From: an uncultured Marinilabiliaceae bacterium
Lineage (GTDB): Bacteria > Bacteroidota > Bacteroidia > Bacteroidales > VadinHA17
Length of the DNA stretch: 64,000 nucleotides
Reading direction: 5' to 3'
Assembly: GCA_942492595.1 (NCBI GenBank)
Contig: CALOFK010000003.1
Location: 677,554 to 741,553, forward strand
This document shows, one piece after another, positions 8,927-62,311 of this stretch. The notes below the pieces were generated by a model, which searched no databases, was not told the DNA's origin, and saw only the letters and a program-made list of their open reading frames with translations. The translations under genes were made by a program, and so were the position numbers. Every line of letters starts with the position of its first letter. Position 1 is the stretch's first letter.

Positions 8927-11230
8927 ATGTCTTTAGAATACCTGGATGAACTAAATGAGGCGCAGAAACAGGCTGTTGTTAACAGCGACGGACCGGCGCT
9001 GGTTATTGCCGGAGCCGGATCAGGTAAAACACGTGTCCTTACCTATAGAATTGCCCATCTCTTAAACAGTGGTGTAGAAGCCGGATCTATACTGGCCCTT
9101 ACATTTACCAATAAGGCGGCAGGTGAAATGAAAGACAGGATTATTTCACTGGCAGGATATAATAATGCCCGATATTTATGGATGGGTACTTTCCATTCAA
9201 TTTTTGCAAGAATTCTTCGAAGCGAAGCCGATAAACTGGGCTACCCTTCGGCTTATACTATCTACGACACTACCGATTCGCGCAGCCTGATAAAAACTAT
9301 TATCAAAGAGATGAACCTCGACGATAAAGTTTATAAGCCGGCAGGTGTTGCTGCAAGAATATCGGCTGCAAAAAACAATCTTATTACCGCTTCTACATAC
9401 TCATCAAACAGTGAAATAATTGAAAAAGACAGGTCTGCAAAGGCACCTCATCTCGCAGAGATTTATAAAATATACGCGGCAAGGTGCTTTAAGGCAGGAG
9501 CTATGGATTTTGATGATCTACTGCTTAATACCAATATATTGTTTCGTGATTTTCCCGAAGTGCTTCAGAAATACAGGGAAAGATTCAGATATGTACTTGT
9601 TGATGAATACCAGGATACAAATTATTCACAATATTTAATTATCAATAAACTTTCCGAAAGTCATCGTAATATCTGTGTTGTGGGCGACGATGCACAGAGC
9701 ATTTACTCTTTCAGAGGTGCCAGGATTGAAAATATACTTAACTTCAGAAAAGATTACCCCGACTACAAAATATATAAACTGGAACAGAACTACAGATCAA
9801 CAAAAACTATTGTAAAGGCTGCTAACAGCGTTATTCATAAGAACCAGGGGCAGATAAAAAAGACCATTTTCTCTGAAAAGAGTACCGGAGATAAAATAAG
9901 GGTAATAAGATCAATGACAGATGCTGAGGAGGGATTTAAAATAGCATCAGATATTTTTGACCGTAGCCTAAGACAGCAATTAAACTGGAGCGACTTTGCC
10001 ATATTATATCGGACCAATGCCCAGTCCAGGATTTTTGAAGAAACTCTCAGGAAAAGAAATGTACCATATAAGATTTATGGAGGTCAGTCCTTTTTCGAAA
10101 GAAAAGAGGTTAAGGATATACTGGCATATTTCAGGATGGTAGTAAATCCCAAAGATGAAGAAGCACTTAAGAGAACAATAAATTATCCTAAAAGAGGTAT
10201 TGGTAAGACAACTATCGACAGGATATTTGAGGCTGCCAATAAGTATGAGATTCCTGCATGGGCTATTATCTCGCACCCCGACAAATGGCAATCACTGTTT
10301 ACCGCTGCTACATGGAAAAGAATAACAGTCTATGCCGAACTGATAAACAGGATATTACAATCGGCATCCAGCATGAATGCTTATGATCTTGCACTGAAGA
10401 TTTCATCTGAAGCTGGCATAAAGAGGGATCTCGGTGAGGGCAGATCTCCGGAAGAAATCAGCAGGTATGAAAATTTCCAGGAACTACTAAACGCTGTTAA
10501 GGAATTTACGGAGTCGGCCGAAACTAATGGCGAAGCTGCTAACCTTGAGGCCTATCTTGAAACCGTAGCCCTGCTTACCGATCAGGACACCGATGGTGAG
10601 TCAGATATAAACAAAGTAACACTAATGACTGTACACTCAGCCAAGGGACTGGAATACAGGATGGTTTATGTCGTCGGGCTGGAGGAAAATCTATTTCCAT
10701 CGCTAATGGCAATGGGAACAAACAGGGAGATAGAGGAAGAAAGAAGACTTTTTTATGTTGCTATTACAAGGGCAATGGAGGGTCTATGCCTTAGCTACGC
10801 CGAAAACAGGTATAAGTGGGGTAATCTTGAGATCTGTAAACCAAGTATGTTCCTGAGCGAGATTAATGAAGAATTCCTGGAGCTGCCGGGTCCTGTAGCT
10901 TCAAGACCAACTACAAAAGACAGCTACAGACCGAGGGCACAGAGAAGTTTCGGAAAGAGTACAGGGGAGAAACAGCCAGAATACAAACCACATGGCAAAA
11001 AAAGCCTTACTAATATTAGCTCTGTAAAGGGTAAAAGTGAAAACTTTGAATACACAACTGATCTAGAAAAGATAATGCCTGGAATAAGAGTGTCTCACGA
11101 AAGATTCGGTGCCGGCGAAGTTATTTCGATCGATGGCAGGCCTCCAAATACAACTGCATTAGTCAGGTTCGATTCTGTAGGAGAAAAAAAGCTCCTCCTG
11201 CGTTTTGCTAAACTTAGAATAGAAATATAA
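8927..11230 (+). CDS. UvrD/PcrA/Rep-family ATP-dependent DNA helicase
   Basis: 767 aa with Walker A GAGSGKT, motif II VDEYQDT, QNYRS, and VHSAKGLEY near the C-terminus. Confidence 0.95.
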   Translation: MSLEYLDELNEAQKQAVVNSDGPALVIAGAGSGKTRVLTYRIAHLLNSGVEAGSILALTFTNKAAGEMKDRIISLAGYNNARYLWMGTFHSIFARILRSEADKLGYPSAYTIYDTTDSRSLIKTIIKEMNLDDKVYKPAGVAARISAAKNNLITASTYSSNSEIIEKDRSAKAPHLAEIYKIYAARCFKAGAMDFDDLLLNTNILFRDFPEVLQKYRERFRYVLVDEYQDTNYSQYLIINKLSESHRNICVVGDDAQSIYSFRGARIENILNFRKDYPDYKIYKLEQNYRSTKTIVKAANSVIHKNQGQIKKTIFSEKSTGDKIRVIRSMTDAEEGFKIASDIFDRSLRQQLNWSDFAILYRTNAQSRIFEETLRKRNVPYKIYGGQSFFERKEVKDILAYFRMVVNPKDEEALKRTINYPKRGIGKTTIDRIFEAANKYEIPAWAIISHPDKWQSLFTAATWKRITVYAELINRILQSASSMNAYDLALKISSEAGIKRDLGEGRSPEEISRYENFQELLNAVKEFTESAETNGEAANLEAYLETVALLTDQDTDGESDINKVTLMTVHSAKGLEYRMVYVVGLEENLFPSLMAMGTNREIEEERRLFYVAITRAMEGLCLSYAENRYKWGNLEICKPSMFLSEINEEFLELPGPVASRPTTKDSYRPRAQRSFGKSTGEKQPEYKPHGKKSLTNISSVKGKSENFEYTTDLEKIMPGIRVSHERFGAGEVISIDGRPPNTTALVRFDSVGEKKLLLRFAKLRIEI

Positions 11231-24480: not shown

Positions 24481-24517
24481 CCAATAACAGGCTTAAAGAT
24501 GCTACCCATTGACTTTA

Positions 24518-24545
24518 GTCTTTTGTCTTTTGTCCTTTGTCTTAC
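24518..24545 (+). repeat. Four tandem 7-bp units GTCTTTT/GTCCTTT upstream of the grpE promoter
   Basis: The sequence is GTCTTTTGTCTTTTGTCCTTTGTCTTAC. A further TTGTCC occurs at 24557-24562. Confidence 0.6.
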
Positions 24546-24574
24546 TTTCTGTCATTTTGTCCAAACATAATGCT

Positions 24575-24590
24575 TGGCAGAGTATTTGCT
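24575..24590 (+). promoter_or_regulatory. Sigma-54-type -24/-12 promoter element upstream of grpE-dnaJ
   Basis: TGGCAG(24575-80)-AGTAT-TTGCT(24586-90). It matches TGGCAC-N5-TTGCW at 10 of 11 positions with exact spacing. The ATG at 24624 is 34 nt downstream. Confidence 0.55.
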
Positions 24591-24623
24591 CCCTTGGAGT
24601 AGGTTTTTAAAAATATATTTTTG

Positions 24624-25277
24624 ATGGCTACGAGTAAAGATTCTAAGAAGGATAAAAAGAAGGCAGATAATAAAACAAAAGCTGCTGATATTAAGGATGT
24701 TAATGCAGACAACAAGGATGCTGGAAACAACGAAAATGCTGAGGACTCAGTTAATTCAGAACAGCAATCCTCTGCTAAGAAAAAAGATAAGGTAAAAGAG
24801 GACGGAATAAATACTGACAACAAAGCCGATACTGAGGAGAGCCTCGAGGAAAAATTGGCAGAAGCAAAGGATAAGTATTTACGCCTCTCTGCTGAATTCG
24901 ATAATTACAGGAAAAGAACACTTAAAGAGAAAATGGATCTTACCAAGTCGGCAGGTGAGTCTATAATAAATAACCTCCTGCCTGTTATGGATGATTTTGA
25001 CAGGGCACTGCAGCTTATGGAGGAAGTTAGCGATTGCAAAGCGATGAAAGATGGCATTGATCTGATATACTCAAAGTTCAGTGAATTTCTAAAGGGAAAC
25101 GGAGTCAAAGAAATAGATGCTCTAAACAAGGAATTTGACACCGACCTTCATGAGGCCATTACTAAAATTCCTGCGCCAGACAAAAAATCAAAAGGGAAAG
25201 TAGTGGATGTTATTCAAAAAGGCTATTATCTAAACGACAGGGTTATGAGGTATGCTAAAGTTGTGATAGGAGAATAG
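24624..25277 (+). CDS. grpE: Nucleotide exchange factor GrpE, with a long K/D/N-rich N-terminal extension
   Basis: It has the GrpE core LRLSAEFDNYRKRT...DPxxHEA-like DTDLHEAI...GYYLNDRVMRYAKVVIG. The ATG at 24624 immediately follows the TTG used by the track. Confidence 0.93.
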   Translation: MATSKDSKKDKKKADNKTKAADIKDVNADNKDAGNNENAEDSVNSEQQSSAKKKDKVKEDGINTDNKADTEESLEEKLAEAKDKYLRLSAEFDNYRKRTLKEKMDLTKSAGESIINNLLPVMDDFDRALQLMEEVSDCKAMKDGIDLIYSKFSEFLKGNGVKEIDALNKEFDTDLHEAITKIPAPDKKSKGKVVDVIQKGYYLNDRVMRYAKVVIGE

Positions 25278-25415
25278 CCAGGAGAACTTCATTAAAGTTC
25301 TGGAGAACTATGGCGGACGAAGAAAGAGCTAAGAGCCAGGACACAGGGCAAAGAAGATTTTAATAATTGGAAGAGTGGATGGCTAAGGCAAAACTCCACA
25401 CAAAAAACAAACAGG

Positions 25416-26567
25416 ATGTCAAAAAGAGATTATTACGAAGTACTTGAAGTTTCAAAGAGTGCAAGCAAAGAAGAGATCAAAAAGGCTTACAGAAAGAAAG
25501 CACTTCAATATCATCCTGATAAGAATCCTGGAGATTCCGGGGCCGAGGATAAATTTAAGGAGGCAGCAGAAGCCTACGAAGTTCTTCGCGACGACAACAA
25601 GAGAGCACGGTACGACAGGTATGGTCATGCCGGCATGGGTAATGCCGGTGGATTTAGTGGAGGTGGAATGTCGATGGATGATATCTTCTCATCCTTTGGC
25701 GATATATTTGGGGATGCTTTTGGCGGTTTCGGAGGTTTCGGAGGATTTAGCGGAGGCAGGACAAGAGAAAGAGTAAATAAGGGATCAAACCTGAGAGTAA
25801 GGGTTAAACTTACCCTTGCAGAGGTAGCAAAAGGCGTAGAAAAGAAAATAAAAGTTAAAAAGTATGTCTCCTGTGAAGTCTGCGGAGGATCTGGTGCGGC
25901 TGACAGCAATAGCTTCAGCACATGCTCAACATGCCAGGGAGCAGGAAGGGTAACCCGGGTTACCAACACCATACTGGGACAAATGCAAAGTGCCTCAACC
26001 TGCCCTTCATGCGGAGGAGAAGGTAAAATTATCACCAAAAAATGTAATACCTGCTTTGGTGAAGGAATGATAAAAAAGGAAGAGGTCATAACTATTAAGA
26101 TTCCTGCCGGGGTTGGGAATGGCATGCAGCTTACCGTTAGCGGTAAAGGAAATGCGGCAAGAAGAGGAGGTATACCGGGCGATCTGCTTGTTATGATAGA
26201 CGAGATAGATGATGACAAGTTGATTAGAGAAGGAAACGACCTTATATATAATCTGTTTATTAGTGTACCCGATGCAATACTGGGCACCCAGGTTGAGATC
26301 CCGACAGTAGAAAACAGTGTTAAAATAAAGATAGAACCAGGCACTCAGGCAGGAAAAATTTTAAGACTCAGAGGTAAGGGAATACCTGATGTTAATGGCT
26401 ATGGAACAGGAGACCTGCTGGTGAACATTAATGTCTGGATTCCGAAGATCCTGACAGCTGAGGAACAGAAACTAATCGAGAAAATAAAAGGTGCCGAATC
26501 GTTTACACCCAAACCAGGTAAGGGAGATAAGGGGTTTTTTGATAGGATGAGATCATACTTTGAATAG
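25416..26567 (+). CDS. dnaJ: Molecular chaperone DnaJ
   Basis: It has a J domain with HPD (YHPDKNPGD), a G/F-rich region and four CxxCxGxG zinc-finger repeats. Confidence 0.97.
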
Positions 26568-26694: not shown

Positions 26695-27615
26695 ATGACA
26701 CTTTTAAGAGCTGATAATGTAAGAAAACAATACAGCAACCACCTGGCTCTTGATGATGTTTCTCTGGCGGTACCTAAGCAGAGTATATATGGACTGCTTG
26801 GTCCGAATGGCGCCGGAAAGACAACCCTCCTGAGAATAATTAACCAGATTACTGCTCCGGATAGTGGAAGTGTATTCCTGGACGGACATCCGCTTTCCTC
26901 TTCAGATCTGATAAATATCGGCTATCTTCCGGAAGAAAGAGGCCTTTATAAGAAAATGAAGGTAGGTGAGCAATCTATTTATCTGGCTATGTTAAAAGGT
27001 CTCTCCAAGAGTGAAGCTATATCAAAGCTGAAGGAGTGGTTTACAAAATTTGAGATAATCGACTGGTGGGACAAGAAAGTTGAAGAATTATCGAAGGGTA
27101 TGCAACAGAAGATACAATTTGTAACGACTGTTTTGCATGAGCCTAAGTTACTTATCTTCGATGAACCCTTCAGTGGATTTGATCCTATAAACGCTAATCT
27201 TCTTAAGAAGGAAATCCTCGACCTGCGTGACAGAGGTGCTACCATAATATTCTCAACCCATAATATGGCATCAGTCGAAGAGCTCTGCGATCATATTACT
27301 CTGATTGATAACTCCAAATCGATACTGGAAGGAAGCGTCGAAACCATCAGAAAAGAATGGGCTGCCAATGAATATATTATAGAGTTTGAAGGGAAAACCG
27401 ATATTCAGATTAATTCTGCTTATGAAATACTCTCTAACGAACAAAAAGAAGGCAAATCAAGCTTACATATAAAAGCTGCAGCAGTAAATAACGAAAATAA
27501 GATTATTGGCGATATGCTTAAAGCAGGTAATATTTTGTCTTTTAATCCTGCCCTACCCTCAATGAACGAGATATTCATAAGGGTTGTCGAGGCAAATGTA
27601 AAACCTTCGAAATAA
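26695..27615 (+). CDS. ABC transporter ATP-binding protein (ABC-2/NatA-like exporter subfamily)
   Basis: It has Walker A GPNGAGKTT, signature LSKGMQQK, Walker B LLIFDEPFSGFD and an H-loop STHNM. Confidence 0.92.
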   Translation: MTLLRADNVRKQYSNHLALDDVSLAVPKQSIYGLLGPNGAGKTTLLRIINQITAPDSGSVFLDGHPLSSSDLINIGYLPEERGLYKKMKVGEQSIYLAMLKGLSKSEAISKLKEWFTKFEIIDWWDKKVEELSKGMQQKIQFVTTVLHEPKLLIFDEPFSGFDPINANLLKKEILDLRDRGATIIFSTHNMASVEELCDHITLIDNSKSILEGSVETIRKEWAANEYIIEFEGKTDIQINSAYEILSNEQKEGKSSLHIKAAAVNNENKIIGDMLKAGNILSFNPALPSMNEIFIRVVEANVKPSK

Positions 27616-27629
27616 TAAAATCAAGTGTT

Positions 27630-28991
27630 ATGTCAAAGACTTCAATAATAATACAAAGAGAATATACCAGCAGGGTTAAGAAGAAATCATTTATTATAAT
27701 GACTATTCTCACTCCCCTGCTTTTTGCAGGATTAATGGTAATACCAGCTCTGATAATGGATAGCGATGATAAAGATTTTAAGAAAATCGCTGTTATAGAA
27801 GATGGTTCTGACCTCTTCACAAATGTTATTCCCAATACGGAATTCATGGAATTCGATTACCTGGGTGATGCTGGAATTGAAAGCCTGAAAGATACTTTTG
27901 AAGAAGCAGGTTATTACGGGATACTTTATATTTCTCCAACAGTCGTAAATGTTCCTAATGCTATCCAGCTTATATCGGCAAAGCAACCTCCCCTTAATGT
28001 TACCGAACATATAGAACGATCGCTTGAAAAATATATCGAAACCGAGAAGATGGCTCAGTACGAAATCGAAAATCTTGACGAGATACTAAAGAGCGTACAA
28101 ACTAATGTTAAGGTTCAGACAATTCGTATTAATGAAAGCGGAGAGACAAAGGAGACTAATACAGGTATAGCTATGGCCCTTGCATATATAGGTGCCTTTA
28201 TGATGTATATGATAGTGATTCTATATGGTGTGCAGGTTATGAGGGGTGTTTTTGAGGAAAAGAATAACCGGATTGTCGAGGTTATAATATCATCTGTTAA
28301 ACCGGTCCAGCTGATGATGGGGAAAATAATCGGTATTGCTCTGGTAGGGCTTACGCAGTTTGCAATCTGGATACTGCTTACCTTTGGAATAGTCTTCGTG
28401 GTAAAAGGACTTATAATACCTGAAAATAATACACAGCTAACAGAGATGGTTTCACAAAACGTGATGCAACAATCTCCTGAAGCGGCAGCTATTCTTGAAA
28501 ATTCAACTACGGGTAACATAAGCGATAACCCTGAGTTTGTAAGGCTGTATAACAATATTATGAATTTCAACTGGCCACTTGTAATTATATCATTTATCTT
28601 CTACTTTATTTTTGGATATTTGCTATATGCCTCAATATTTGCTGCAATAGGGTCTGCCGTTGACTCCGAAACAGATACACAGCAGTTTATGTTTCCTGTT
28701 ATGCTGCCAATAATACTGGGATTATTTATAGCCATGGGAACTATGCAAAATCCCGAAAGTTCACTTTCATTCTGGGGTTCCATGATCCCCTTTACATCAC
28801 CTATCGTGATGATGGCTCGCATACCCTTTGAAGTTCCTATATGGGAAATTGTTCTTTCAATAGCTATTCTTGCAGCAACCTTCTTCGGATTCGTATATCT
28901 TGCAGCTAAAATATACAGAATTGGAATACTGATGTACGGAAAGAAAGTGAGCTATAAGGAAATGATTAAATGGATCAGATATAAAGGATGA
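27630..28991 (+). CDS. ABC-2 type transporter permease (NatB-like, large extracytoplasmic loop after TM1)
   Basis: 453 aa with one N-terminal TM, a ~150-aa loop and then 5 clustered TMs. It lies 14 nt downstream of the ATPase gene. Confidence 0.85.
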   Translation: MSKTSIIIQREYTSRVKKKSFIIMTILTPLLFAGLMVIPALIMDSDDKDFKKIAVIEDGSDLFTNVIPNTEFMEFDYLGDAGIESLKDTFEEAGYYGILYISPTVVNVPNAIQLISAKQPPLNVTEHIERSLEKYIETEKMAQYEIENLDEILKSVQTNVKVQTIRINESGETKETNTGIAMALAYIGAFMMYMIVILYGVQVMRGVFEEKNNRIVEVIISSVKPVQLMMGKIIGIALVGLTQFAIWILLTFGIVFVVKGLIIPENNTQLTEMVSQNVMQQSPEAAAILENSTTGNISDNPEFVRLYNNIMNFNWPLVIISFIFYFIFGYLLYASIFAAIGSAVDSETDTQQFMFPVMLPIILGLFIAMGTMQNPESSLSFWGSMIPFTSPIVMMARIPFEVPIWEIVLSIAILAATFFGFVYLAAKIYRIGILMYGKKVSYKEMIKWIRYKG

Positions 28992-29045
28992 AATAGTTTA
29001 GTGGTTTAGAAACTAAACAGTTAAGCTTCTAAACCACTAAACCAA
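28992..29045. repeat. Perfect 16-bp inverted repeat built from GTTTAGNG octamers (hairpin/terminator after the ABC operon)
   Basis: GTTTAGTGGTTTAGAA (28996-29011) and TTCTAAACCACTAAAC (29027-29042) are separated by a 15-nt loop. The octamer is related to the tandem repeat at 31661-31691. Confidence 0.7.
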
Positions 29046-29063
29046 TAAACTACTAGAATACCC

Positions 29064-30233
29064 ATGGCAAAAGTACTTGTAATAGACGACGAAAAAGCAA
29101 TTAGGAATACTCTGAAAGACGTTCTCGAATATGAGAAACATATAGTAGATCTTGCACAGGATGGCATAGCAGGTCTTGATTTATTTGCTGAAGGTCACTA
29201 TGATGTAGTACTGTGCGATATAAAAATGGATAACATGGATGGAGTCGAAGTACTGGAAAAAATTCAGGAAACCACACATGATATACCTGTAATTATGATC
29301 TCCGGTCATGGAAATATTGATACTGCCGTTGATGCCATTAAAAAGGGAGCCTTCGATTTTCTTGAAAAACCCCTTGACCTTAACAGGCTGCTTATTACCA
29401 TGCGAAATGCAATGGAAAAATCAAACCTGATAAGCGAAACAAAGGTCCTGAAAAAGAAGGTAAGCAAGAAATATGAAATTATTGGGGAATCAGAGCCAAT
29501 TCTGAAAGTCAAAGAGATGATAGACCGTGTCGCACCCACAGAGGCACGAGTACTTATTACAGGTTCAAACGGAACGGGCAAGGAACTTGTTGCCCACCAG
29601 CTCCATGAGAAAAGCAGTCGATCAAAAGCCCCTTTTATAGAGGTTAACTGTGCAGCAATACCAGGTGAGTTAATTGAAAGCGAACTTTTCGGTCATGAAA
29701 AAGGTTCCTTCACCTCAGCACATAAACAGAGAATAGGAAAGTTTGAACAGGCTGACGGAGGGACAATATTCCTCGACGAAATAGGAGATATGAGCCTTTC
29801 AGCCCAGGCAAAGGTGCTTCGCGCGCTCCAGGAAAATAAGATATCCAGGGTGGGCTCAGATAAAGATATACAGGTAAACGTAAGAGTTATTGCAGCCACC
29901 AATAAAGACCTCAGTAAGGAAATTGAGAATAACAGCTTCAGGGAAGACCTTTATCACAGGTTAAGCGTTATACTGATCAATGTACCTGACCTGAAAGACC
30001 GAAAAATCGATATTCCCTTACTCGCAGATCATTTCAACGACATTATATGTTCCGAATATGGTATGACTAAGAAGATTATTACAAAGGATGCTATCAGCGA
30101 ACTTAAGAAAATTGAGTGGACCGGTAATATACGTGAATTCAGAAATGTTCTTGAAAGGCTTATTATCCTCTGCCAGGAAGAAATAAGGGGAAAAGATGTG
30201 CAGGCATTTGCCCATCCGGTATCAAAAAAATAG
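29064..30233 (+). CDS. Sigma-54-dependent enhancer-binding protein: receiver domain + AAA+ domain, no C-terminal HTH
   Basis: It has REC (VLVIDDE..., LCDIKMDNMDG), Walker A GSNGTGKE, the loop ELFGHEKGSFTSA (a GAFTGA variant), Walker B GGTIFLDEIG and sensor II GNIREFRNVLERL. The protein ends 17 aa later at residue 389. Confidence 0.9.
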   Translation: MAKVLVIDDEKAIRNTLKDVLEYEKHIVDLAQDGIAGLDLFAEGHYDVVLCDIKMDNMDGVEVLEKIQETTHDIPVIMISGHGNIDTAVDAIKKGAFDFLEKPLDLNRLLITMRNAMEKSNLISETKVLKKKVSKKYEIIGESEPILKVKEMIDRVAPTEARVLITGSNGTGKELVAHQLHEKSSRSKAPFIEVNCAAIPGELIESELFGHEKGSFTSAHKQRIGKFEQADGGTIFLDEIGDMSLSAQAKVLRALQENKISRVGSDKDIQVNVRVIAATNKDLSKEIENNSFREDLYHRLSVILINVPDLKDRKIDIPLLADHFNDIICSEYGMTKKIITKDAISELKKIEWTGNIREFRNVLERLIILCQEEIRGKDVQAFAHPVSKK

Positions 30234-30350: not shown

Positions 30351-31649
30351 ATGCTTCGATACCGTTATCTAATACTTGTTATTCTTATAATAGCTCCCCT
30401 GGCTGTGTCTGCCCAGGATATCTTTACAAGCAAAAAAGCTCATGAAGAAAAAGACGCTTTAAGTTCTGAAGAATTAAGGAAGCATGCACTGAATGTATTT
30501 CTTGACTGCTCCTGGTGCGACAGAGACTATATCAAACAGGTTATCCCTTATGTAAATTATGTTACTAATAAGGATGATGCCGATGTTCATATACTGGTAA
30601 GAAGACAGACCAACGGGGGTGGCGGAAGTGAATATATAATCGATTTTATTGGAAGCGGTGATTTTAAAGACCTGGATGACCAACTGAAATTCATATCACC
30701 CGTTGATGAAACACGTGATGAAACAAGAGTGGCCAGATCAGGAATCATTTCGATGGGACTGATGCAATATGTTTCCCGGACACCTATCGGAAGGAACATT
30801 AAGATTATTTATGAGAATAAAGGTGTACCCGAAAGAATACTGAACCCTACCGTGGCTGATGATCCATGGGATAGCTGGATGTTCAGACTGAGAGCCTCGG
30901 GTTCAATAAACAGGGATGAGAATTATAACAACTCAAACATAGAGACCTCTCTTTCGGCCGACAGGGTAACCCCCGAGCTAAAGGTTGAATTCGATGCTGA
31001 ATATGAATTAAACCAGAGAGTCTATAAACTTCTTGAAACAGAAACGATACAGAGGGAGTGGAAATTAAACGGACTAATTGTAAAGAGCTTAAGCCCGAGA
31101 TGGTCGGCCGGAATAAGATCAAATGCTTTTGGTAGCATAAAGAATAATTACGATTATTCAATTTCAGCTGGGCCCGCGATAGAATATAATATATTCCCAT
31201 ACGAAGAGTCTTTTAAGCACCAGGTCAGATTGCAGTATGGAGTTCAATCGGTTTATAATAACTACTCCGATACAACAACCTTGTTGAAAACAGATGAATT
31301 AATCTTTAAACATAGCCTGAGTGTTACAGGTGGAGTAAACAAGGAATGGGGAAATGGTTATATATATATTACCTACTCTAATTACCTGCACGATTTTGAA
31401 TTATATAATCTTACAATCGGGGGAAGAATAGACTATAGAATATATAAGGGCCTGTCGGTTAATTTCAGAACAAGTGCCAGTATTATCCACGACCAGATTA
31501 ACCTGAGGCTTGAAGGTGCGACAACGGATGAAATACTAACCCAGCAATATGCCCTGAAATCAGGTTATAAATACTCCTTCTCGGTAGGATTAACATATTC
31601 CTTTGGTTCAATCTACAATAACGTTGTAAATACCAGATTCGGCAACTAA
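30351..31649 (+). CDS. Uncharacterised secreted protein, probable outer-membrane beta-barrel
   Basis: It has signal peptide ...LAVSA/QD and an N-terminal ~150-aa domain containing CSWCDRDY. The C-terminal ~270 aa show alternating hydrophobic/aromatic strands with short turns. I recognise no family. Confidence 0.6.
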   Translation: MLRYRYLILVILIIAPLAVSAQDIFTSKKAHEEKDALSSEELRKHALNVFLDCSWCDRDYIKQVIPYVNYVTNKDDADVHILVRRQTNGGGGSEYIIDFIGSGDFKDLDDQLKFISPVDETRDETRVARSGIISMGLMQYVSRTPIGRNIKIIYENKGVPERILNPTVADDPWDSWMFRLRASGSINRDENYNNSNIETSLSADRVTPELKVEFDAEYELNQRVYKLLETETIQREWKLNGLIVKSLSPRWSAGIRSNAFGSIKNNYDYSISAGPAIEYNIFPYEESFKHQVRLQYGVQSVYNNYSDTTTLLKTDELIFKHSLSVTGGVNKEWGNGYIYITYSNYLHDFELYNLTIGGRIDYRIYKGLSVNFRTSASIIHDQINLRLEGATTDEILTQQYALKSGYKYSFSVGLTYSFGSIYNNVVNTRFGN

Positions 31650-31660
31650 CAACTGGCATA

Positions 31661-31691
31661 AACCCCTAAACCTCTAAACCTCTAAACTATT
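31661..31691. repeat. Tandem octamer repeat CCCTAAAC-CTCTAAAC-CTCTAAAC (complement of GTTTAGNG)
   Basis: The sequence is AACCCCTAAACCTCTAAACCTCTAAACTATT. The reverse complement of 31672-31691 matches 28992-29011 at 18 of 20 positions. Confidence 0.7.
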
Positions 31692-31699
31692 CGTAGTCA

Positions 31700-31730
31700 T
31701 TGCATAGTCTGACTAAAAGTTTTAAGTTTG
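31700..31730 (+). promoter_or_regulatory. Candidate Bacteroidota sigma-A promoter (TTG-N20-TAAGTTTG) for aspA
   Basis: TTG lies at 31700-31702 and TAAGTTTG at 31723-31730, matching the -33 TTG / -7 TAnnTTTG consensus. The ATG is at 31754. Confidence 0.35.
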
Positions 31731-31753
31731 TAATAGACTAAAAATATTGGGCT

Positions 31754-33193
31754 ATGAACCGGACTGAAAGCGACAGACTGGGAGATGTAAAAATTCCCGT
31801 AGAGGCTCTTTATGGCATCCACTCACTGAGAGCAAAAGAAAACTTTCCGGCAGATATCCAATTTCACTCTGAGTGGTATAAGGCAGTCGGACTGGTTAAA
31901 CTGGCATGCTACAGAACCTACCGCAAATTTAAGATAGCAAGTGTCGAAAAATACGGTCAAACTGTACCTTTTAAATTACTTGATGATAAAATAATTGATG
32001 CTCTTGAAAAGGCAGCAGTCGAAGTATCTGAGGGAATTTACTTTGGCCATTTCATTGTACCCGGTCTCCAGGGGGGTGCCGGAACGAGCATAAACATGAA
32101 TATCAATGAAATAATAGCCAATACAGCTCTCTTATCCCTTGGAAAAGAATGCGGCGAATATTCTGTTATAGACCCGATAGAAGAGGCCAATATTTACCAG
32201 TCGACAAATGATGTTATTCCTTCCTCTCTGACTATTGCAGCGATAAACCTCCTGAAATCACTTGAGGAGGAAATAAACAATAACAGGCAGATAATAGAAA
32301 CTCTTGAAACTGATAACAGAAATAAGCTCAGAACTGCATATACCCAGATGCAGGAGGCTGTACCCTCTACATTCGGGTCGCTGTTCTCAACATATAATGA
32401 AGCTCTTTCCCGCGACTGGTGGAGAGTATCAAAGTGTAAGGAAAGAATTAAGGTTGTTAACCTGGGAGGAGGAGCCACAGGAACAGGTATAGGAATACCA
32501 AGGTTCTTTATTATGGAAGTAGTACCCCAGCTCAGAAATATTACATCTCTGCCGGTAAGCAGAAGCGAAAACCTTCAGGATGCAACTGCAAATCTTGACA
32601 GCTGGGTGGAGGTGCATGCTATATTGAAGGCACACGCCGTAAACCTGGAGAAGATATCAAACGATATCAGATTATTATCTTCTGATATCTCGGGCAAAGG
32701 CTTTGTTACAATACCTGCTAGACAGATTGGAAGTTCTATAATGCCCGGGAAGATAAACCCTGTTATACCCGAATATGTAATATCATCGGCACATAAAATA
32801 TACGCGAACGACCAGCTTATAAGTTCGCTGTGCGGACAGGGCTGTCTCGACCTGAATGCCTATCTGCCAACAATTGGCCATGCAATCCTGGAGTCTCTGA
32901 AACTTCTTATTGCTGCCAATAATTCAATGGCAAATTTCCTGTTCCAGGGATTGCTAATTAATAAAGAAGCTGCCCTGGAATCTCTGCTAAAAAGCCCGGC
33001 AATAGCAACTGCTTTAAGCCCCTACATTGGATATAATAAAGCTGCTGAACTGTCAGCGCTTATGAAAAAGGAAGATATCGACATCTACGAAGCCGCCACA
33101 AAAACAGGCGCAATATCCAAAGAAAAGCTAAATAAGATAATGGATCCTTCAAACCTCCTTAAGCTTGGATTTACAATCTCTGATATACTTTGA
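31754..33193 (+). CDS. aspA: Aspartate ammonia-lyase (class II fumarase/aspartase family)
   Basis: 479 aa with the signature GSSIMPGKINPVIPE (the PV-PE variant is typical of aspartase) and an N-terminal ESD.LG...P..ALYG pattern. Confidence 0.8.
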   Translation: MNRTESDRLGDVKIPVEALYGIHSLRAKENFPADIQFHSEWYKAVGLVKLACYRTYRKFKIASVEKYGQTVPFKLLDDKIIDALEKAAVEVSEGIYFGHFIVPGLQGGAGTSINMNINEIIANTALLSLGKECGEYSVIDPIEEANIYQSTNDVIPSSLTIAAINLLKSLEEEINNNRQIIETLETDNRNKLRTAYTQMQEAVPSTFGSLFSTYNEALSRDWWRVSKCKERIKVVNLGGGATGTGIGIPRFFIMEVVPQLRNITSLPVSRSENLQDATANLDSWVEVHAILKAHAVNLEKISNDIRLLSSDISGKGFVTIPARQIGSSIMPGKINPVIPEYVISSAHKIYANDQLISSLCGQGCLDLNAYLPTIGHAILESLKLLIAANNSMANFLFQGLLINKEAALESLLKSPAIATALSPYIGYNKAAELSALMKKEDIDIYEAATKTGAISKEKLNKIMDPSNLLKLGFTISDIL

Positions 33194-33213
33194 TATATTT
33201 TTAAAATTTTCTT

Positions 33214-33238
33214 CCAACGTTTTATTAATTCTTACGTC
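33214..33238 (+). promoter_or_regulatory. Candidate ECF-type promoter (CCAAC-N16-CGTC) upstream of the ECF sigma gene
   Basis: AAC lies at 33216-33218 and CGTC at 33235-33238 with a 16-nt spacer, 14 nt upstream of the ATG at 33252. The pattern resembles autoregulated ECF promoters. Confidence 0.4.
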
Positions 33239-33251
33239 TCTGAAATAAAGG

Positions 33252-33788
33252 ATGATCGCTAAGGAAAAAAATATTATTGAGAAGTGCCAGGAAGGCGATG
33301 TTAAAGCGCAATTCCTCTTATATAAACAATACTCAAAAGCAATGTACAATATCGCTATCAGATTCCTTAATAATACGATGGATGCCGAAGACATTCTCCA
33401 GGAATCATTTCTATCTGCTTTTGAAAAAATAGATAGCCTGGCAAATACCAATTCATTTGGGTCATGGCTGAAAAGAATAGTAATTAATAATTGCCTGAGC
33501 CTGCTTAGAAAGAAGAAAATATATTATGAAGATATAGATGATTATAAACTTGAAGATGTTGATGAGCACGACTCGTTTGCTGATATTGACCCGGTAGTGG
33601 TACACAGGGAAATCAAAAACCTGCCAGATGGAGGCAGAACAATTCTGGTGTTACATGCTCTTGAAGGGTATAAGCACAGGGAAATTGCAAAAATGATGGG
33701 CATAAGTGAATCGACAAGCAGGACCCAGTATAAAAGAGCTCTTGGAATACTGAATAAAAACGTAAAGGAGAAAGTATATGTCAACTAA
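33252..33788 (+). CDS. RNA polymerase ECF-type sigma-70 factor
   Basis: It has region 2 (AMYNIAIRFLNNTMDAEDILQESFLSAF) and a region 4 HTH (GYKHREIAKMMGISESTSRTQYKRAL). Length is 178 aa. Confidence 0.92.
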   Translation: MIAKEKNIIEKCQEGDVKAQFLLYKQYSKAMYNIAIRFLNNTMDAEDILQESFLSAFEKIDSLANTNSFGSWLKRIVINNCLSLLRKKKIYYEDIDDYKLEDVDEHDSFADIDPVVVHREIKNLPDGGRTILVLHALEGYKHREIAKMMGISESTSRTQYKRALGILNKNVKEKVYVN

Positions 33789-34341
33789 GTTCGAAAAATA
33801 TCTTAAAGAAAACCGTCGTGTTTTCGATGTTGAATATCCCGACGATGAAGCTATCTGGAGAAGGATGGAGGAGAACAGACCGGAACAGAATAGAAGCAAA
33901 AAGGGAAGGTCCATCAGGATAAGCGCAAAATTCCAAAGGATAGCAGCTTCTGTAATAATAGTAATTGCATTATCATATATAGCTATTGACCTCAGTATAG
34001 GGATCTCATTTAATAATAATAACTCCTCCCTCTCGCAGATAAACAGCCAATATGGAGAAATTGAACAGAATTATATGCAAGTGGTAAAGTATAAGAAGGA
34101 AGAAATAAACAACACCAGCATACCTGATAACGATATTATTAGGTCAATACTGGGGGAACTTAAACAACTGGATAAACTCTACAGTGAAACACAGGAAGAT
34201 CTTCAAAAACTTGGCGACAATGAAAGAGTTGTAAATACAATATTTAATATCTACGAGCGAAAGATAGAGCTACTTGAGAGAATAATAGTAGAAACAAATA
34301 AATACGATAATTATGAAAAAAATAATAAATCCGAGATTTAG
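33778..34341 (+). CDS. Putative anti-sigma factor (single-pass membrane protein)
   Basis: It overlaps the sigma gene by 11 nt. It has one TM (IAASVIIVIALSYIAIDL) between a short cytoplasmic N-terminus and a ~110-aa extracytoplasmic part. Confidence 0.65.
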   Translation: MSTKFEKYLKENRRVFDVEYPDDEAIWRRMEENRPEQNRSKKGRSIRISAKFQRIAASVIIVIALSYIAIDLSIGISFNNNNSSLSQINSQYGEIEQNYMQVVKYKKEEINNTSIPDNDIIRSILGELKQLDKLYSETQEDLQKLGDNERVVNTIFNIYERKIELLERIIVETNKYDNYEKNNKSEI

Positions 34342-35626
34342 TCTGTCATTCCTATTCCTGTTATTAATGGCAGGACTGATGGCTCAGACAGGAAGCGATA
34401 TCGAAAAAAGCTATAAATGGTCCTATAAGCTTGGAGCAGAAGGAATACTTACTATAAGTAATTACGACTGCGATCTGGTAATTCATACATGGGACAGTGA
34501 AAAGACCGAACTAAGGATGATAGTAAGCGCTAAAATGAGAAATAGCGAAGATGCTAAAACTCTTGATAGCTATCTTAAAAATCTTGAATTTGATAGTTCT
34601 CCCGGGAAAGTAGTATATAACACCAGGTTCTGGGAATCCCGCGTTAATATTATGGGAAGAAAAACTCTTAAACTTAAAGGAGGGAAAAGTCTTCTTTATA
34701 GAAATATTAAAATTAAAGCTGAGATATGGATGCCCATAAGCGCCAGGCTGGATCTGAATTCTAAATATTCAAATATTGAGCTTGATAAAGCAGAAGGCGA
34801 TTTAAACCTGAACCTTTATAATGACAAGCTATTTTCAGATGATATAAATGGTGATATGGAGATTAGTGCAAAATACTCAAGCCTTGAGTTTAAAAATTGT
34901 AAAAATATTGTTGCAGATCTATACGATTGCGATATCACAACTTTAAAAGCAGGTAAATGCCAGTATAACTCCAAATATTCAAAAATATCTTCAAGCGAGG
35001 TTCAGGATATAACAATTGCTTCATACACCGATAGATTTACTTTTAAGAACTGCGGCAATATAAATATAAACTCTAAATATTCAGACCTTAAAACTACTGT
35101 AGCCGGAAAGGTTATAATAGATAGTTACGAAGGGACATTTGAAATAGATAATTGCCTCAATATGGAAATTACTTCAAAATATACAGACTTTCAAAACAAA
35201 AATGTTAAAGATATACTCGTAAAAGATATATATGAAGGCAGTATTGAATCAGAAAAAATAAACTCGCTAATTATCAATAAATCAAGATATGTAAATTACA
35301 AGCTGGGCATCCTCGATAAATCAATCAGGCTGGACGAAGGCTACGAAGATGATTTCTTTATCGATGAACTGGGCCCCGGTTTTAGTTTATTAGAGCTAAA
35401 TGGCAAATATCTTAAGTGTGAGACAATCTTTAACAATAGTCTGAATCTAAAGTTTTTAGCCAGTATAAAGTACCCCCATCTTGAACTGGAAAATGTAGAC
35501 CTGACTACAAAGACCAAAATTAAGGAATCCTCCAGCCTGGAATACGAAGCATATAAAGGGGAGGTCAGTGATGCTATGCCTCTGATATCCCTTAACGGTT
35601 ATGAGATCAGATTTACCTTTAAATAG
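34313..35626 (+). CDS. Secreted repeat protein, DUF4097-like putative beta-helical adhesin
   Basis: It has signal peptide ...GLMA/QT. Repeats of the type SKYSNIELDK / AKYSSLEFKN / SKYSKISSSE / SKYSDLKTTV / SKYTDFQNKN recur. It overlaps the anti-sigma gene, the typical third gene of such ECF modules. Confidence 0.7.
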   Translation: MKKIINPRFSLSFLFLLLMAGLMAQTGSDIEKSYKWSYKLGAEGILTISNYDCDLVIHTWDSEKTELRMIVSAKMRNSEDAKTLDSYLKNLEFDSSPGKVVYNTRFWESRVNIMGRKTLKLKGGKSLLYRNIKIKAEIWMPISARLDLNSKYSNIELDKAEGDLNLNLYNDKLFSDDINGDMEISAKYSSLEFKNCKNIVADLYDCDITTLKAGKCQYNSKYSKISSSEVQDITIASYTDRFTFKNCGNININSKYSDLKTTVAGKVIIDSYEGTFEIDNCLNMEITSKYTDFQNKNVKDILVKDIYEGSIESEKINSLIINKSRYVNYKLGILDKSIRLDEGYEDDFFIDELGPGFSLLELNGKYLKCETIFNNSLNLKFLASIKYPHLELENVDLTTKTKIKESSSLEYEAYKGEVSDAMPLISLNGYEIRFTFK

Positions 35627-35638
35627 ATCCCGGATTTT

Positions 35639-35686
35639 ATCCCTGCTAAGCCTGTCCCTGCGAAAGCAGGGAGCAGGGATCTTATT
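35639..35686 (+). terminator. Nested hairpin terminator after the ECF module
   Basis: The outer stem is ATCCCTGCT (35639-47) / AGCAGGGAT (35672-80). The inner stem is TCCCTGC-GAAA-GCAGGGA (35655-72). It is followed by CTTATTT. Confidence 0.55.
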
Positions 35687-35775
35687 TAAGAATCAGCCTC
35701 CGATAAAAAGATTCATGCTTCCGCAGGAAGGTCAATAGTAAAATATATGCTAATTTTGCCTGAAACTATTTGCTG

Positions 35776-37002
35776 ATGGCAAAAGGAAAAGAAAATACTC
35801 CTCATATCGGAATTTATGGCAGAAGAAATCTTGGCAAAAGCAGCCTGATTAATGTGCTGGCCGGTCAGGATATTGCAATAGTGTCAGATCATGCCGGCAC
35901 AACAACCGATCCGGTAAAAAAAACATTTGAGATTAGCGGCTTCGGACCTGTAGTTTTTATTGATACGGCAGGAATTGATGATTCGGGTGAGCTGGGTGAC
36001 AAAAGGGTAGATCGGTCTATTAATACAATCGAAACCATAGACCTGGCAATTCTGGTAGTAGGAGAGGAAAAATGGAACATCTTTGAGGCCACTATCCTGA
36101 ATAGATTTATTGAGCGCGATATTCCTTATATCGTTATTTATAATAAAACTGACCTTGGCAGTCCATCCGAAAAATTCATCCAGGATATAAAACAAAAGAC
36201 CGGAAAAGATGTACTTCTCTTTTCCACTATCAACAATAACGGCTACGAAAGCCTGATAAAGCAAATTAAAGAATCTATTCCGGAAAGCACCCTCAGGATA
36301 CCTAGTCTGCTGGGTGATATTATCTCAGAGGGCGACCTTGTACTTCTTATTACACCTATCGACGTCGAAGCCCCGGAGGGAAGATTAATACTCCCGCAGG
36401 TTCAAACAATAAGAGATATTCTTGATAATGATGCTATTTCAATAGTTCTTAAAGAACGCGAGGTGGATACCTTCCTTAGCAGAACAGCTATTCTTCCAGC
36501 ACTCGCAATTACAGATTCACAGATATTTGTTAAGGCAGATTCATCAATACCTCCGGAAGTACCATTAACCAGCTTTAGTATAGCACTGGCAAGATATAAG
36601 GGCGATTTTGACTCCTACCTCAAGGGTACTCCAAAAATAGCCGATCTGAAAGATGGCGACCGGGTATTAATCCTTGAATCCTGCACCCATCATGTTTCAT
36701 GCGACGATATCGGAAGGGTGAAAATACCAAGGTGGCTGATAAACTATACAGGTAAAGACCTTTTATTCGACGTGGTAGCAGGACTGGATAAAATAGAAAA
36801 AGATATCAGGGATTATTCTCTCGTTATACAATGTGGGGGCTGTATGATTACCCGCCGGCAACTTCATAACAGGCTTCAGCCAGCAATAAAGGCGGGAGTG
36901 CCTGTAACTAACTACGGAATGGCAATAGCCTATATCCAGGGTATTTACTCACGTGCTATAGCACCTTTTACTAAAGGATCTGAGGGCGAAAACTACCTGT
37001 AA
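35776..37002 (+). CDS. hydF: [FeFe]-hydrogenase H-cluster maturation GTPase HydF
   Basis: It has the GTPase N-terminus GIYGRRNLGKSSLINVLAGQDIAIVSDHAGTTTDPV, DTAG and NKTD. The C-terminal FeS motif is CTHH-x45-CGGCM. Confidence 0.88.
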   Translation: MAKGKENTPHIGIYGRRNLGKSSLINVLAGQDIAIVSDHAGTTTDPVKKTFEISGFGPVVFIDTAGIDDSGELGDKRVDRSINTIETIDLAILVVGEEKWNIFEATILNRFIERDIPYIVIYNKTDLGSPSEKFIQDIKQKTGKDVLLFSTINNNGYESLIKQIKESIPESTLRIPSLLGDIISEGDLVLLITPIDVEAPEGRLILPQVQTIRDILDNDAISIVLKEREVDTFLSRTAILPALAITDSQIFVKADSSIPPEVPLTSFSIALARYKGDFDSYLKGTPKIADLKDGDRVLILESCTHHVSCDDIGRVKIPRWLINYTGKDLLFDVVAGLDKIEKDIRDYSLVIQCGGCMITRRQLHNRLQPAIKAGVPVTNYGMAIAYIQGIYSRAIAPFTKGSEGENYL

Positions 37003-48699: not shown

Positions 48700-48715
48700 T
48701 GGCACCTTTGCTGCC
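48700..48715 (+). promoter_or_regulatory. Sigma-54-type -24/-12 element upstream of hsp20
   Basis: TGGCAC(48700-05)-CTTTG-CTGCC(48711-15). The -24 box is perfect and the -12 box retains TGC. The ATG at 48783 is 68 nt downstream. Confidence 0.4.
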
Positions 48716-48782: not shown

Positions 48783-49199
48783 ATGTTACCAATTAGAAGA
48801 ACTTACAAACCGATGTATATGTCGAACTTTTTTGACAATGATCTTGATACATTTTTCAAACCGGCAAGCACATTTAAGCCAGCAGTAAATGTAAGGGAAG
48901 ATGATAAAGCTTATAATATTGAACTGGCACTTCCTGGTATGTCGAAAGAAGATATTAAGATTGAGATAGAAAAGAATACTCTTATGATATCTTCTGAAAA
49001 AAATGAAAGCAAGGAAGAAGTTAGCGACTCTTATAACCTTAGGGAATTTGGCTACCAGTCATTTTGCAGAAACTTTACAATTCCGGAAAATGCAGATGCC
49101 GAGAAAATAAGTGCATCATACAAAGACGGAATACTGAATGTTGGGATTCCAAAGTCTCAAAAGGACACAAAAGTAAACAGACATATAAAGATATCGTAG
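48783..49199 (+). CDS. Hsp20/alpha-crystallin family small heat-shock protein
   Basis: It has the alpha-crystallin domain PAVNVREDDKAYNIELALPGMSKEDIKIEIEKNTLMIS...F.R.F.LP...I.A.Y.DGIL.V..PK. AAGGAGG lies 8 nt upstream of the ATG. Confidence 0.92.
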   Translation: MLPIRRTYKPMYMSNFFDNDLDTFFKPASTFKPAVNVREDDKAYNIELALPGMSKEDIKIEIEKNTLMISSEKNESKEEVSDSYNLREFGYQSFCRNFTIPENADAEKISASYKDGILNVGIPKSQKDTKVNRHIKIS

Positions 49200-54083: not shown

Positions 54084-54461
54084 TTAATTTTTTTTACTGT
54101 CAACAATATTTTCAATCTCCGCATCTGCCCAGAGTCCTTCAAGGTTATAAAACCTTCTATACTCTTCCATAAAGATATGAACAATAACATTTCCATAATC
54201 AAGTAAAACCCAGAAGCAATTATCCAATCCTTCCTTATGTATGGGGCGTTCACCACTGAGCGACTTAACCTTTGCAATCACTGATTCTGCAATAGAATCT
54301 ACCTGTGTTCCGGATTGTGCATCAGTAATAATAAAGTAATCACAAACTGAACTCTCCAGTTTGCCCATCCCTACTTTTACAACATTGTTCCCGCTCTTTT
54401 CAAATATCCCTTCAATTATATTCTCTACAAGCTGCGTAGTATCATCTTTCTTTTTGCTCAT
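54084..54461 (-). CDS. rsfS: Ribosome silencing factor RsfS (Iojap family)
   Basis: 125 aa with the pattern CDYFIITDAQSGTQVDSIAESV...WVLLDYGNVIVHIF..E.R.FY.LE.LW. Confidence 0.9.
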   Translation of the reverse strand: MSKKKDDTTQLVENIIEGIFEKSGNNVVKVGMGKLESSVCDYFIITDAQSGTQVDSIAESVIAKVKSLSGERPIHKEGLDNCFWVLLDYGNVIVHIFMEEYRRFYNLEGLWADAEIENIVDSKKN

Positions 54462-54545: not shown

Positions 54546-54561
54546 TACAATTACAGTGCCA
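54546..54561 (-). promoter_or_regulatory. Sigma-54-like -24/-12 element upstream of rsfS-ftsH operon (imperfect -12)
   Basis: The minus strand reads TGGCAC-TGTAA-TTGTA. The -24 box is perfect, but the -12 box has GT instead of the conserved GC. It is 85 nt upstream of the rsfS ATG at 54461. Confidence 0.3.
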
Positions 54562-62222: not shown

Positions 62223-62295
62223 ACGATCTGATCTAATATGCCAAAATTACATATAGTTTTACAAAAACCATTCATTTATCTAACACACTGATTAA

Positions 62296-62311
62296 AGCAA
62301 TTGTTGTGCCA
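62296..62311 (-). promoter_or_regulatory. Sigma-54-type -24/-12 promoter element upstream of lon
   Basis: The minus strand reads TGGCAC(62311-06)-AACAA-TTGCT(62300-296), a perfect match to TGGCAC-N5-TTGCW. It is 74 nt upstream of the lon ATG at 62222 and downstream of the L31 terminator. Confidence 0.6.

Follow-up and report, generated by a model that had tools for sequence, protein, structure and literature searches.

A receiver-AAA+ protein of the NtrC/NtrX type without a DNA-binding domain is conserved across Bacteroidota and is linked to grpE-dnaJ in two orders

A stretch of 64,000 nt (hereafter the window) from an uncultured Marinilabiliaceae bacterium (contig CALOFK010000003.1) contains, at 29064-30233 on the forward strand, a gene for a bacterial enhancer-binding protein (EBP) that consists of a receiver, a sigma-54-interaction AAA+ domain and its lid, and that has no DNA-binding domain (DBD). 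The identification is supported by Pfam and NCBIfam profiles and by homologues in the PDB. DBD-less sigma-54 activators are a known class, and the protein belongs to it as an ordinary representative found throughout the phylum rather than as a curiosity of this genome, most orders of Bacteroidota having conserved the short form as their norm. Our preferred reading, which we hold with moderate confidence, is that the EBP is a Bacteroidota-wide regulator of the NtrC/NtrX type that acts from solution, likeliest on a sigma-54 proteostasis regulon. The main new evidence tying it to sigma-54 proteostasis genes is its linkage to grpE across two orders, which supports this reading through guilt by association.

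The open reading frame (ORF) runs from an ATG to a stop codon and encodes 389 amino acids. The receiver domain (residues 4-110, nt 29073-29393, +; Pfam Response_reg, E 5e-31) carries D8, D9, the phospho-acceptor D52 (nt 29217-29219), S80 and K102, as CheY-like response regulators do, and D9, D52 and S80 show little or no variation across 76 orthologues. The linker that follows (residues 111-138, nt 29394-29477, +) is similar in length to that of NtrC1, with a one-residue gap in an alignment to NtrC1 (4L4U) that covers residues 3-371, and may have a regulatory role. In the sigma-54-interaction domain (residues 139-305, nt 29478-29978, +; Pfam Sigma54_activat, E 2e-71) we located Walker A (GSNGTGKE, 167-174), the L1 loop GSFTSA (214-219, nt 29703-29720), Walker B (IFLDE, 235-239) and the arginine finger (RVIAAT, 274-279), while sensor II (GNIRE, 354-358) belongs to the lid (residues 311-374; Pfam AAA_lid_14), which together with a tail of 15 residues, defined by comparison of orthologue C-termini, occupies nt 29994-30230 (+). 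The whole core of a PF00158 EBP, namely Walker A, Walker B, arginine fingers and sensor II, is present, and the preliminary description of this gene was right to call both domains complete.

The C-terminal comparison also revealed that the protein stops where, in long orthologues, the linker to a helix-turn-helix (HTH) starts. Pfam gave no match to HTH_8 even at E≤0.01, and the NCBIfam profiles for NtrX, NtrC, AtoC, ZraR and other regulators, whose matches are all below the equivalog cut-offs, align from the first residue onwards and break off at about position 372-380 of 440-470, those for NtrX, NtrC and AtoC being 450-463 long, so that the missing piece is the C-terminal DNA-binding part. 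The earlier statement that no room is left for a Fis-type HTH therefore holds, and for a form that is natural and conserved; the distance of 17 residues given there between GNIREFRNVLERL and the end of the protein is in reality 23. A split or frameshifted HTH, which the same description had already discounted, is dismissed as well, since tblastn with the last 95 residues of eight HTH-bearing orthologues matched nowhere but at 30135-30230, the end of the lid within the ORF, all frames downstream being without a match, and since the gap to the next ORF measures 117 bp.

Protein database searches returned thousands of relatives of the EBP, and among the homologues listed at least 120 are 388-397 residues long and at least 80% identical; the best 120 share its list of domains, without HTH_8. 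Most are named "sigma-54 dependent transcriptional regulator" or "NtrX" in the database. Hundreds of orthologues of 380-395 residues with the same end point were found in independent assemblies and in isolate genomes, and short orthologues of this length occur in Bacteroidales, Flavobacteriales, Cytophagales, Chitinophagales and Saprospiraceae. As a native and conserved protein without C-terminal HTH_8, the window protein is a genuine DBD-less EBP. A scan at the species level, with one genome per species, yielded 80 loci (given L-numbers here), among which the Bacteroidota orthologues outside Sphingobacteriales and the unclassified metagenome-assembled genome L015 end 25-33 residues after the GNxRE motif. 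The exceptions are L005 and L073, with a C-terminal extension of about 35 residues that is not an HTH; in both of these Saprospiraceae orthologues (L005 10001-11266; L073) the extension (…FREFFDKFQNMEELQSFIEGEYKKYKKV) is distinct from HTH_8. A search of representatives at 50% identity, in which about 14 of the best 150 matches were short forms, serves as a rough census.

Long orthologues, of 452-478 residues, end in a Fis-type HTH (...WNVSKTA..IQRSHLYSKIEKYGL). In Bacteroidota they are carried by Sphingobacteriales (Olivibacter, Mucilaginibacter and one further locus) and by L015, and further carriers are Salinibacter and Rhodothermales, Melioribacter and Gemmatimonadota. All seven long forms that were scanned had Pfam HTH_8 above its cut-off, at 24-30 bits in Sphingobacteriales, lower than the 38-48 bits of the outgroups; the three short forms included in the same scan had no such match. 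A neighbour-joining tree groups the Bacteroidota sequences in a single clade, with the HTH-bearing Sphingobacteriales nested inside it and the HTH-bearing sequences of the FCB group and of Gemmatimonadota as its sister groups. Because long forms are thus nested within and sister to the short ones, we consider the DNA-binding domain to have been secondarily lost and, given the right tree topology, probably more than once.

The linked kinase appears to have been lost as well. When nearly all ORFs of 150 residues or more in the window were scanned with Pfam, neither a histidine kinase nor rpoN nor a further EBP was detected, and the earlier remark that no histidine kinase gene is adjacent is confirmed among these ORFs. 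The protein had on this ground been called an orphan, which is correct as far as a linked kinase is concerned but not as a peculiarity of this genome, the family being conserved phylum-wide and its architecture being on record for Bacteroidetes (PMC3372290). Distant long forms (L067-L079), from Nitrospira, deltaproteobacteria, Acidobacteria and Verrucomicrobia, have directly upstream a gene that we named by eye, from its sequence, as an NtrY-like kinase of about 750 residues (by eye transmembrane-HAMP-PAS-HisKA-HATPase), and this gene was found in none of the Bacteroidota loci. As the kinase neighbour is seen only with the distant long forms, the lineage would have lost the linked kinase first and the HTH after it. 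In L067, L070, L072 and L074 (deltaproteobacterial and Thermoanaerobaculia), by eye, an lpxC-like gene precedes the NtrY-like kinase and the NtrX-like EBP, and L067 has a sigma-54-type site at 6591-6606, 52 nt before the lpxC-like gene.

The gene neighbourhood provides the link to proteostasis. In the window, grpE (24621-25277; Pfam GrpE) and dnaJ (25416-26567; identified by its translation, by eye, and by the DnaJ Pfam matches of its counterpart in L083) open a cluster (24621-26567, +) that continues on the same strand with an ABC ATPase (26695-27615) and an ABC-2 permease (27630-28991; both by Pfam, together 26695-28991, +) and ends in the EBP gene; synteny supports the assignment of all four. 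The close relatives L001, L002 and L081-L083 (EBP identity 78-91%) share this order of grpE, dnaJ, ABC ATPase, ABC-2 permease and EBP, and so do, in Flavobacteriales, Maribacter, three species of Flavobacterium, Gelidibacter, Aquimarina, Mesonia and Psychroserpens. What is new here is that this order is common to this lineage of Bacteroidales and to Flavobacteriales, with a sigma-54-type site before each grpE. A census of neighbours took in the 41 Bacteroidota species loci whose sequence reaches 6 kb or more upstream; grpE/dnaJ lie within 6.5 kb upstream of the EBP gene in 11, the ABC pair in 12 and both in 10.

Sites of the sigma-54 type are found in the window before grpE, hsp20 and lon, the three genes named in the preliminary description. 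A scan with a position weight matrix (PWM) for the -24/-12 promoter gave five matches of at least 15 bits, against a mean of 0.78 and a maximum of 4 in 200 shuffles, and three of the five are intergenic and correctly oriented, each before a proteostasis gene: TGGCAGAGTATTTGCT at 24575-24590 (+; 16.8 bits), about 31 nt before grpE; TGGCACCTTTGCTGCC at 48700-48715 (+; 15.2 bits), 68 nt before hsp20 (48783-49199; Pfam HSP20); and TGGCACAACAATTGCT at 62296-62311 (-; 19.5 bits), 74 nt before the ATG of lon (59766-62222, -; Pfam Lon). Assuming about 45 upstream regions, 4 of them of proteostasis genes, the hypergeometric probability of finding three of three sites at proteostasis genes is about 3e-4. 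A weak sigma-54-like site, TGGCACTGTAATTGTA (TGGCACTGTAATTGT), with TTGT as its -12 element, is placed at 54546-54561 (-; 11.7 bits), 85 nt before an rsfS-like ORF of 125 residues (54084-54461, -; by eye only) and ftsH (52017-54071, -; by Pfam). The plain consensus TGGCAC-N5-TTGC with two mismatches was not enriched in the window (38 matches versus 37 expected), the weighted scan being informative only at a high threshold, and the PWM matches inside ORFs (at 45222, 56799 and 61008) were taken as probable chance. We treated in the same way a match of 20.4 bits in L019 (TGGCACTTGCATTGCA, 10164-10179, -), which lies about 2.7 kb downstream of the EBP gene of that locus, inside an enoyl-CoA-hydratase-like ORF of a phenylacetate-type (paa) cluster.

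The sites at grpE and lon are conserved. All 14 loci that carry grpE (the window, L001, L002, L030, L034, L041, L044, L045, L046, L050, L075 and L081-L083, from Bacteroidales and Flavobacteriales) have TGGCA(G/A)-N4-5-TTTG(C/A/T) 21-44 nt upstream of this gene, and the intergenic sigma-54-type matches in the species loci are nearly all at grpE. Upstream of lon, TGGCAYAA-N3-TTGY is invariant between the window and five relatives (L084-L088, Lon identity 75-93%; alignment A1), in which the flanks have diverged.

A sigma-54 regulon of chaperones and proteases has already been published for Bacteroidota (PMC9723704, PMC12316311). In Flavobacterium psychrophilum, mapped transcription start sites (TSSs) with the -24/-12 motif (SM4 promoters) were assigned to groESL, lon, dnaK, grpE-dnaJ, htpG and clpB, and ftsH was found to share one co-expression cluster with the sigma-54 chaperone genes (PMC9723704); likewise, a 2025 survey by position-specific scoring matrix (PSSM) found such sites enriched in Bacteroidota and Planctomycetota (PMC12316311). 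The same classes of genes, grpE-dnaJ, lon, a small heat-shock protein and perhaps ftsH, have -24/-12 sites in the window, and whereas the published studies name no activator, the window points to a candidate EBP. To be counted as an EBP in the 2025 survey, a protein needed the GAFTGA motif (PMC12316311); if applied exactly, such a filter would exclude the GSFTSA/GAFTSA family.

Activators of this architecture are known from other bacteria. DBD-less EBPs, such as FlgR and CtcC, are classified as type Ic, a recognised minority of about 4% of EBPs (PMC3162934), and for Bacteroidetes the architecture is already on record, Pereira et al. having reported RpoN as near-universal among Bacteroidetes genomes and activators without enhancer-binding domains, dependent on RpoN, in many Epsilonproteobacteria, Chlamydiae and Bacteroidetes (PMC3372290). 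FlgR of Helicobacter pylori and CtcC of Chlamydia trachomatis consist, as the window EBP does, of a receiver and a sigma-54 AAA+ domain without HTH, so that the likeness drawn in the preliminary description is borne out by the architecture; by analogy with these two proteins, activation from solution without an enhancer would be expected. The window EBP is nevertheless not orthologous to them. Its nearest relatives are HTH-bearing, NtrX/NtrC-like proteins of FCB-group phyla, its own lineage having lost the HTH in a separate event, and the NCBIfam FlgR profile gives 301 bits against a cut-off of 750, below the NtrX and NtrC scores. FlgR and CtcC moreover have cognate kinases, FlgS and CtcB, and flagellar or late developmental genes as targets, whereas the window EBP has no linked kinase and a candidate regulon of chaperones and proteases.

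The nearest solved structures are those of Aquifex NtrC4 (3DZD, E 5e-96) and NtrC1 (4L4U and 1NY5, E about 1e-94), followed by Brucella NtrX (5M7N). The NtrC1 and NtrC4 matches span residues 3-374, and the sequence identity to these solved proteins fixes the fold of the EBP. The chain of 1NY5 (387 residues, receiver and AAA+ without HTH) is co-extensive with it, residues 2-371 aligning with residues 3-371 of the EBP, which suggests negative control by the receiver in the manner of NtrC1. Native Aquifex NtrC1 and NtrC4 bear a C-terminal HTH, which the window protein lacks, and bind enhancers. NtrX is both the top NCBIfam profile for the EBP and a frequent database name of its orthologues; the score of 421.8 bits (profile positions 1-372 of 452) is below the cut-off of 600 of the NtrX equivalog NF051870, and the window EBP differs from NtrY/NtrX systems in having no HTH and no NtrY neighbour among the scanned ORFs. 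Alphaproteobacterial NtrX has no GAFTGA and is thought to be sigma-54-independent, whereas the family of the window EBP retains the Phe and Thr of the loop. A sigma-54-dependent NtrC-type regulator that activates a heat-shock protease gene, lonD, is known from the HsfA/HsfB system of Myxococcus xanthus; HsfA, which contains a DNA-binding domain and is paired with a cognate kinase, HsfB, showed no orthology to the window EBP within the comparisons made here.

Two further candidates for kinship were considered. The flavobacterial EBP of the lptE operon, THC0290_0733, was rejected as an orthologue, its gene being 1257 nt long (418 residues); the genes downstream of the orthologues are, in addition, mutually unrelated, and none is LptE-like by eye. 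FP0667, a "sigma-54 dependent two-component response regulator", is a possible orthologue in F. psychrophilum.

The L1 loop of the window EBP, GSFTSA, is a putative sigma-54 contact. Two of its six positions depart from GAFTGA, and the Phe and Thr that make the sigma-54 contact are retained; within the orthologous family the loop reads GSFTSA, GAFTSA, GSFTGA or GAFTGA, with F and T in all. Francke et al. list functional activators with serine for A2 (LevR) and with a substituted G5 (FlgR, GAFTDA), and rate the change of G5 to S as "putative functional" (PMC3162934); the epsilonproteobacterial FlgR and the window EBP are thus both substituted at position 5. We rejected a tie between serine at this position and the loss of the HTH, given that long forms of Sphingobacteriales have GSFTSA, and several short forms with GSFTGA or GAFTGA break such a tie further.

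Taken together with the regulon, these likenesses suggest how the EBP might work. A signal on D52 of the receiver, from an unlinked kinase or from another source, would relieve receiver-mediated repression, as in NtrC1, and the freed AAA+ domains would assemble as a ring. This ring would contact the sigma-54 holoenzyme of the closed complex from solution, without an upstream activator site, in the way of FlgR and CtcC, and would open the promoter by hydrolysis of ATP. Without a DNA-binding domain the EBP could not discriminate between sigma-54 promoters, which makes a dispersed regulon its natural target, here presumably grpE-dnaJ, hsp20, lon and perhaps rsfS-ftsH. Its position at the end of the grpE-dnaJ-ABC-ABC cluster would fit this role, and some autoregulation through read-through is possible; in L001 and L002, read-through from the grpE promoter into the EBP gene is conceivable, because the intergenic gaps in the cluster are of only 25-140 nt. 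The EBP thus probably activates the sigma-54 proteostasis promoters of the window. This link, made in the preliminary description, has been strengthened by the conserved gene order, by the lon site and by the published TSS and PSSM work, although we still infer it; the EBP need not be the only one of its genome, as F. psychrophilum has three proteins with the sigma-54-interaction domain (PMC9723704). More tentatively, and with rather more doubt than belief, one may imagine the DBD-less EBP as the Bacteroidota-wide master activator of heat shock and proteostasis, enhancer-free on every sigma-54 promoter, a counterpart of sigma-32 or HrcA, with a possible unlinked kinase and a possible feedback through the DnaK-DnaJ-GrpE machinery that its neighbours encode.

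The grpE promoter holds a second conserved element. The -24 box had been described as preceded by only a short spacer; it is preceded instead by a TGNCAWTTTGNCM element, which in the window reads TGTCATTTTGTCC (24550-24562, +), 25 nt upstream of the box, as identified by comparison of the grpE loci. The Flavobacteriales version is TGACA(A/T)TTTGACA. This element could be the site of a different, DNA-binding regulator, or could be part of a second, overlapping promoter of the sigma-A type, since it shares the TTTG core with the Bacteroidetes TAnnTTTG motif. Activation by the EBP would, from the analogy with FlgR and CtcC, be enhancer-independent, and the element leaves a tethered mode possible. 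At lon, another island of conservation, TGTAAnTTTGnCA, is placed at 62235-62250 (-) of the window, downstream of the sigma-54 site and ahead of the gene start, and in L084-L088 it is found about 20-35 nt before the ATG; it fits the Bacteroidetes sigma-A -7 consensus TAnnTTTG, which suggests tandem sigma-54 and sigma-A promoters at this gene. Upstream of the grpE promoter of the window we also observed a run of TTTGTC-type repeats (GTCTTTT GTCTTTT GTCCTTT GTC...GTCATTTT GTCC, 24505-24562), which was not seen in the closest relative, L081. A reading of the TGACA direct repeat as a CtsR-like operator was dropped, its period being 8 nt and not the 10 nt that we take to be that of CtsR operators, and Bacteroidota being presumably the wrong phylum for CtsR.

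Several observations weigh against an action of the EBP on the proteostasis promoters. The EBP gene is away from grpE in 30 of the 41 species loci of the census, most orders having no such linkage, and in the window a hairpin, described below, divides the gene from those upstream and speaks against simple co-transcription. The -12 element of grpE is TTTGT or TTTGA, not TTGC, in L001, L046, L081 and L082, where TGGCA is invariant (such tolerance at the normally conserved C of the -12 element is unusual), and rpoN itself was not among the scanned ORFs of the window. To these are added the possible binding of another regulator to the TGNCAWTTTGNCM element, the close linkage of the ABC pair to the EBP gene and the presence, in F. 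psychrophilum, of three proteins with the sigma-54-interaction domain as candidate activators, none of them assigned (PMC9723704), of which another could drive the heat-shock promoters. The last two points are also the basis of the alternative that we take most seriously, and still judge rather unlikely, in which the EBP is a genuine DBD-less activator with another output, such as the ABC-2 transporter or the cell envelope, and a different EBP drives the proteostasis promoters. The ABC ATPase and permease are at least as tightly linked to the EBP gene as grpE is, being kept without grpE-dnaJ in L013, L025 and L051, and most EBP loci have no heat-shock neighbour. No sigma-54-type site was seen, however, before the ABC genes or other neighbours in the loci, in L046 it is the ABC pair that is missing while grpE-dnaJ-EBP is retained, and a DBD-less activator could not be confined to one promoter without another tether.

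A tether of this sort is assumed in a further explanation, which we find improbable, namely that a separate DNA-binding partner, sitting for example on the TGNCAWTTTGNCM element, recruits the EBP, the two polypeptides making up a split enhancer-binding system. The spacing of the element, fixed at 25-26 nt upstream of TGGCA in all 14 grpE promoters of the two orders, and its distribution, with 14 of its 20 occurrences in 1.44 Mb at grpE promoters, would suit a partner; at lon, however, the grpE-like arrangement was not found, what resembles it at hsp20, TGCCATTATGGCA, overlaps the -24 box, and no partner gene is conserved beside the EBP gene. A second housekeeping promoter is the simpler reading, as the element resembles the sigma-A -7 context and a TAnnTTTG box is conserved near lon too. 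It is still less probable that the GSFTSA loop has lost its contact with sigma-54 and that the EBP is a sigma-54-independent AAA+ signalling protein, comparable to NtrX, TyrR or DhaR. The two departures from GAFTGA, the top rank of NtrX among the NCBIfam matches and the retention of exact-GAFTGA proteins only in the survey (PMC12316311) could be cited for it, but the critical F and T are kept throughout a family whose loop varies, proven activators have the substitutions at A2 (LevR) and G5 (FlgR) (PMC3162934), and the sigma-54-independent relatives require the very DNA-binding domain that the EBP lacks. That the ORF might be a truncation, a pseudogene or an assembly artefact of a full-length NtrC-type gene is suggested by nothing more than its being shorter than canonical NtrC, and we regard this as refuted: length and end point recur in hundreds of independent assemblies and isolate genomes, the catalytic and receiver residues are all conserved, and no HTH remnant lies downstream in any frame.

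The DNA around the EBP gene has features of its own. Between the stop of the permease gene and the EBP start, a perfect 16-bp hairpin (28996-29042, +; dG -21.7 kcal/mol, z -5.3), without a U-tract, is a possible terminator or insulator; it is absent from the relatives L001 and L002. The hairpin is built of 8-nt CTAAACCN units, which recur in tandem at 31658-31687, just after the 432-residue gene that follows the EBP gene. The two spots are mutually inverted (arms 28992-29010 and 31673-31691, 95% complementary) and flank the EBP gene and this next gene; the pattern has 6 matches against 0.04 expected, occurs nowhere else in the window and is likewise absent from L001 and L002. For the next ORF (30351-31649), whose N-terminus by eye resembles a signal peptide, neither Pfam nor NCBIfam gave a match. 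This ORF begins a block of six genes (30351-37002) located between the EBP and MBOAT genes in the window and in L081, which encode the 432-residue secreted protein, a lyase of the aspartase/fumarase type, an extracytoplasmic function (ECF) sigma factor, products of a 187-residue and a 437-residue ORF, and HydF. In L082 and L083 the block is absent and MBOAT directly follows the EBP gene; judged from these sequences, the block is either an insertion or was deleted in these relatives. The other conserved neighbours of EBP genes, named by eye, are housekeeping genes without a heat-shock link (Ppx, pyruvate dehydrogenase E1-beta, signal peptidase, IspH, PPK2, MATE and others), and cluster c19, of about 140 residues, which lies beside some EBP genes, was rejected as Hsp20.

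Bacteroidota are a dominant phylum of guts, soils and oceans, and their heat-shock promoters are known to be of the sigma-54 type. To our knowledge, no regulator of heat-shock control has been identified in the phylum. A single, highly conserved and easily deletable gene now stands as the prime candidate for the activator, on the comparative basis of its linkage to the sigma-54-dependent grpE-dnaJ operon. The family has, in addition, two more general implications: surveys that look for exact GAFTGA will overlook EBPs of the GSFTSA type, and one orthologous EBP that occurs both with and without the HTH is a natural series for asking when an enhancer-binding domain becomes dispensable. Finally, the tiny flavobacterial endosymbionts of insects, among them Blattabacterium, Uzinura and Walczuchella with genomes of about 260-630 kb, retain rpoN (PMC3971599), and a master-activator circuit, if true, would account for this retention.

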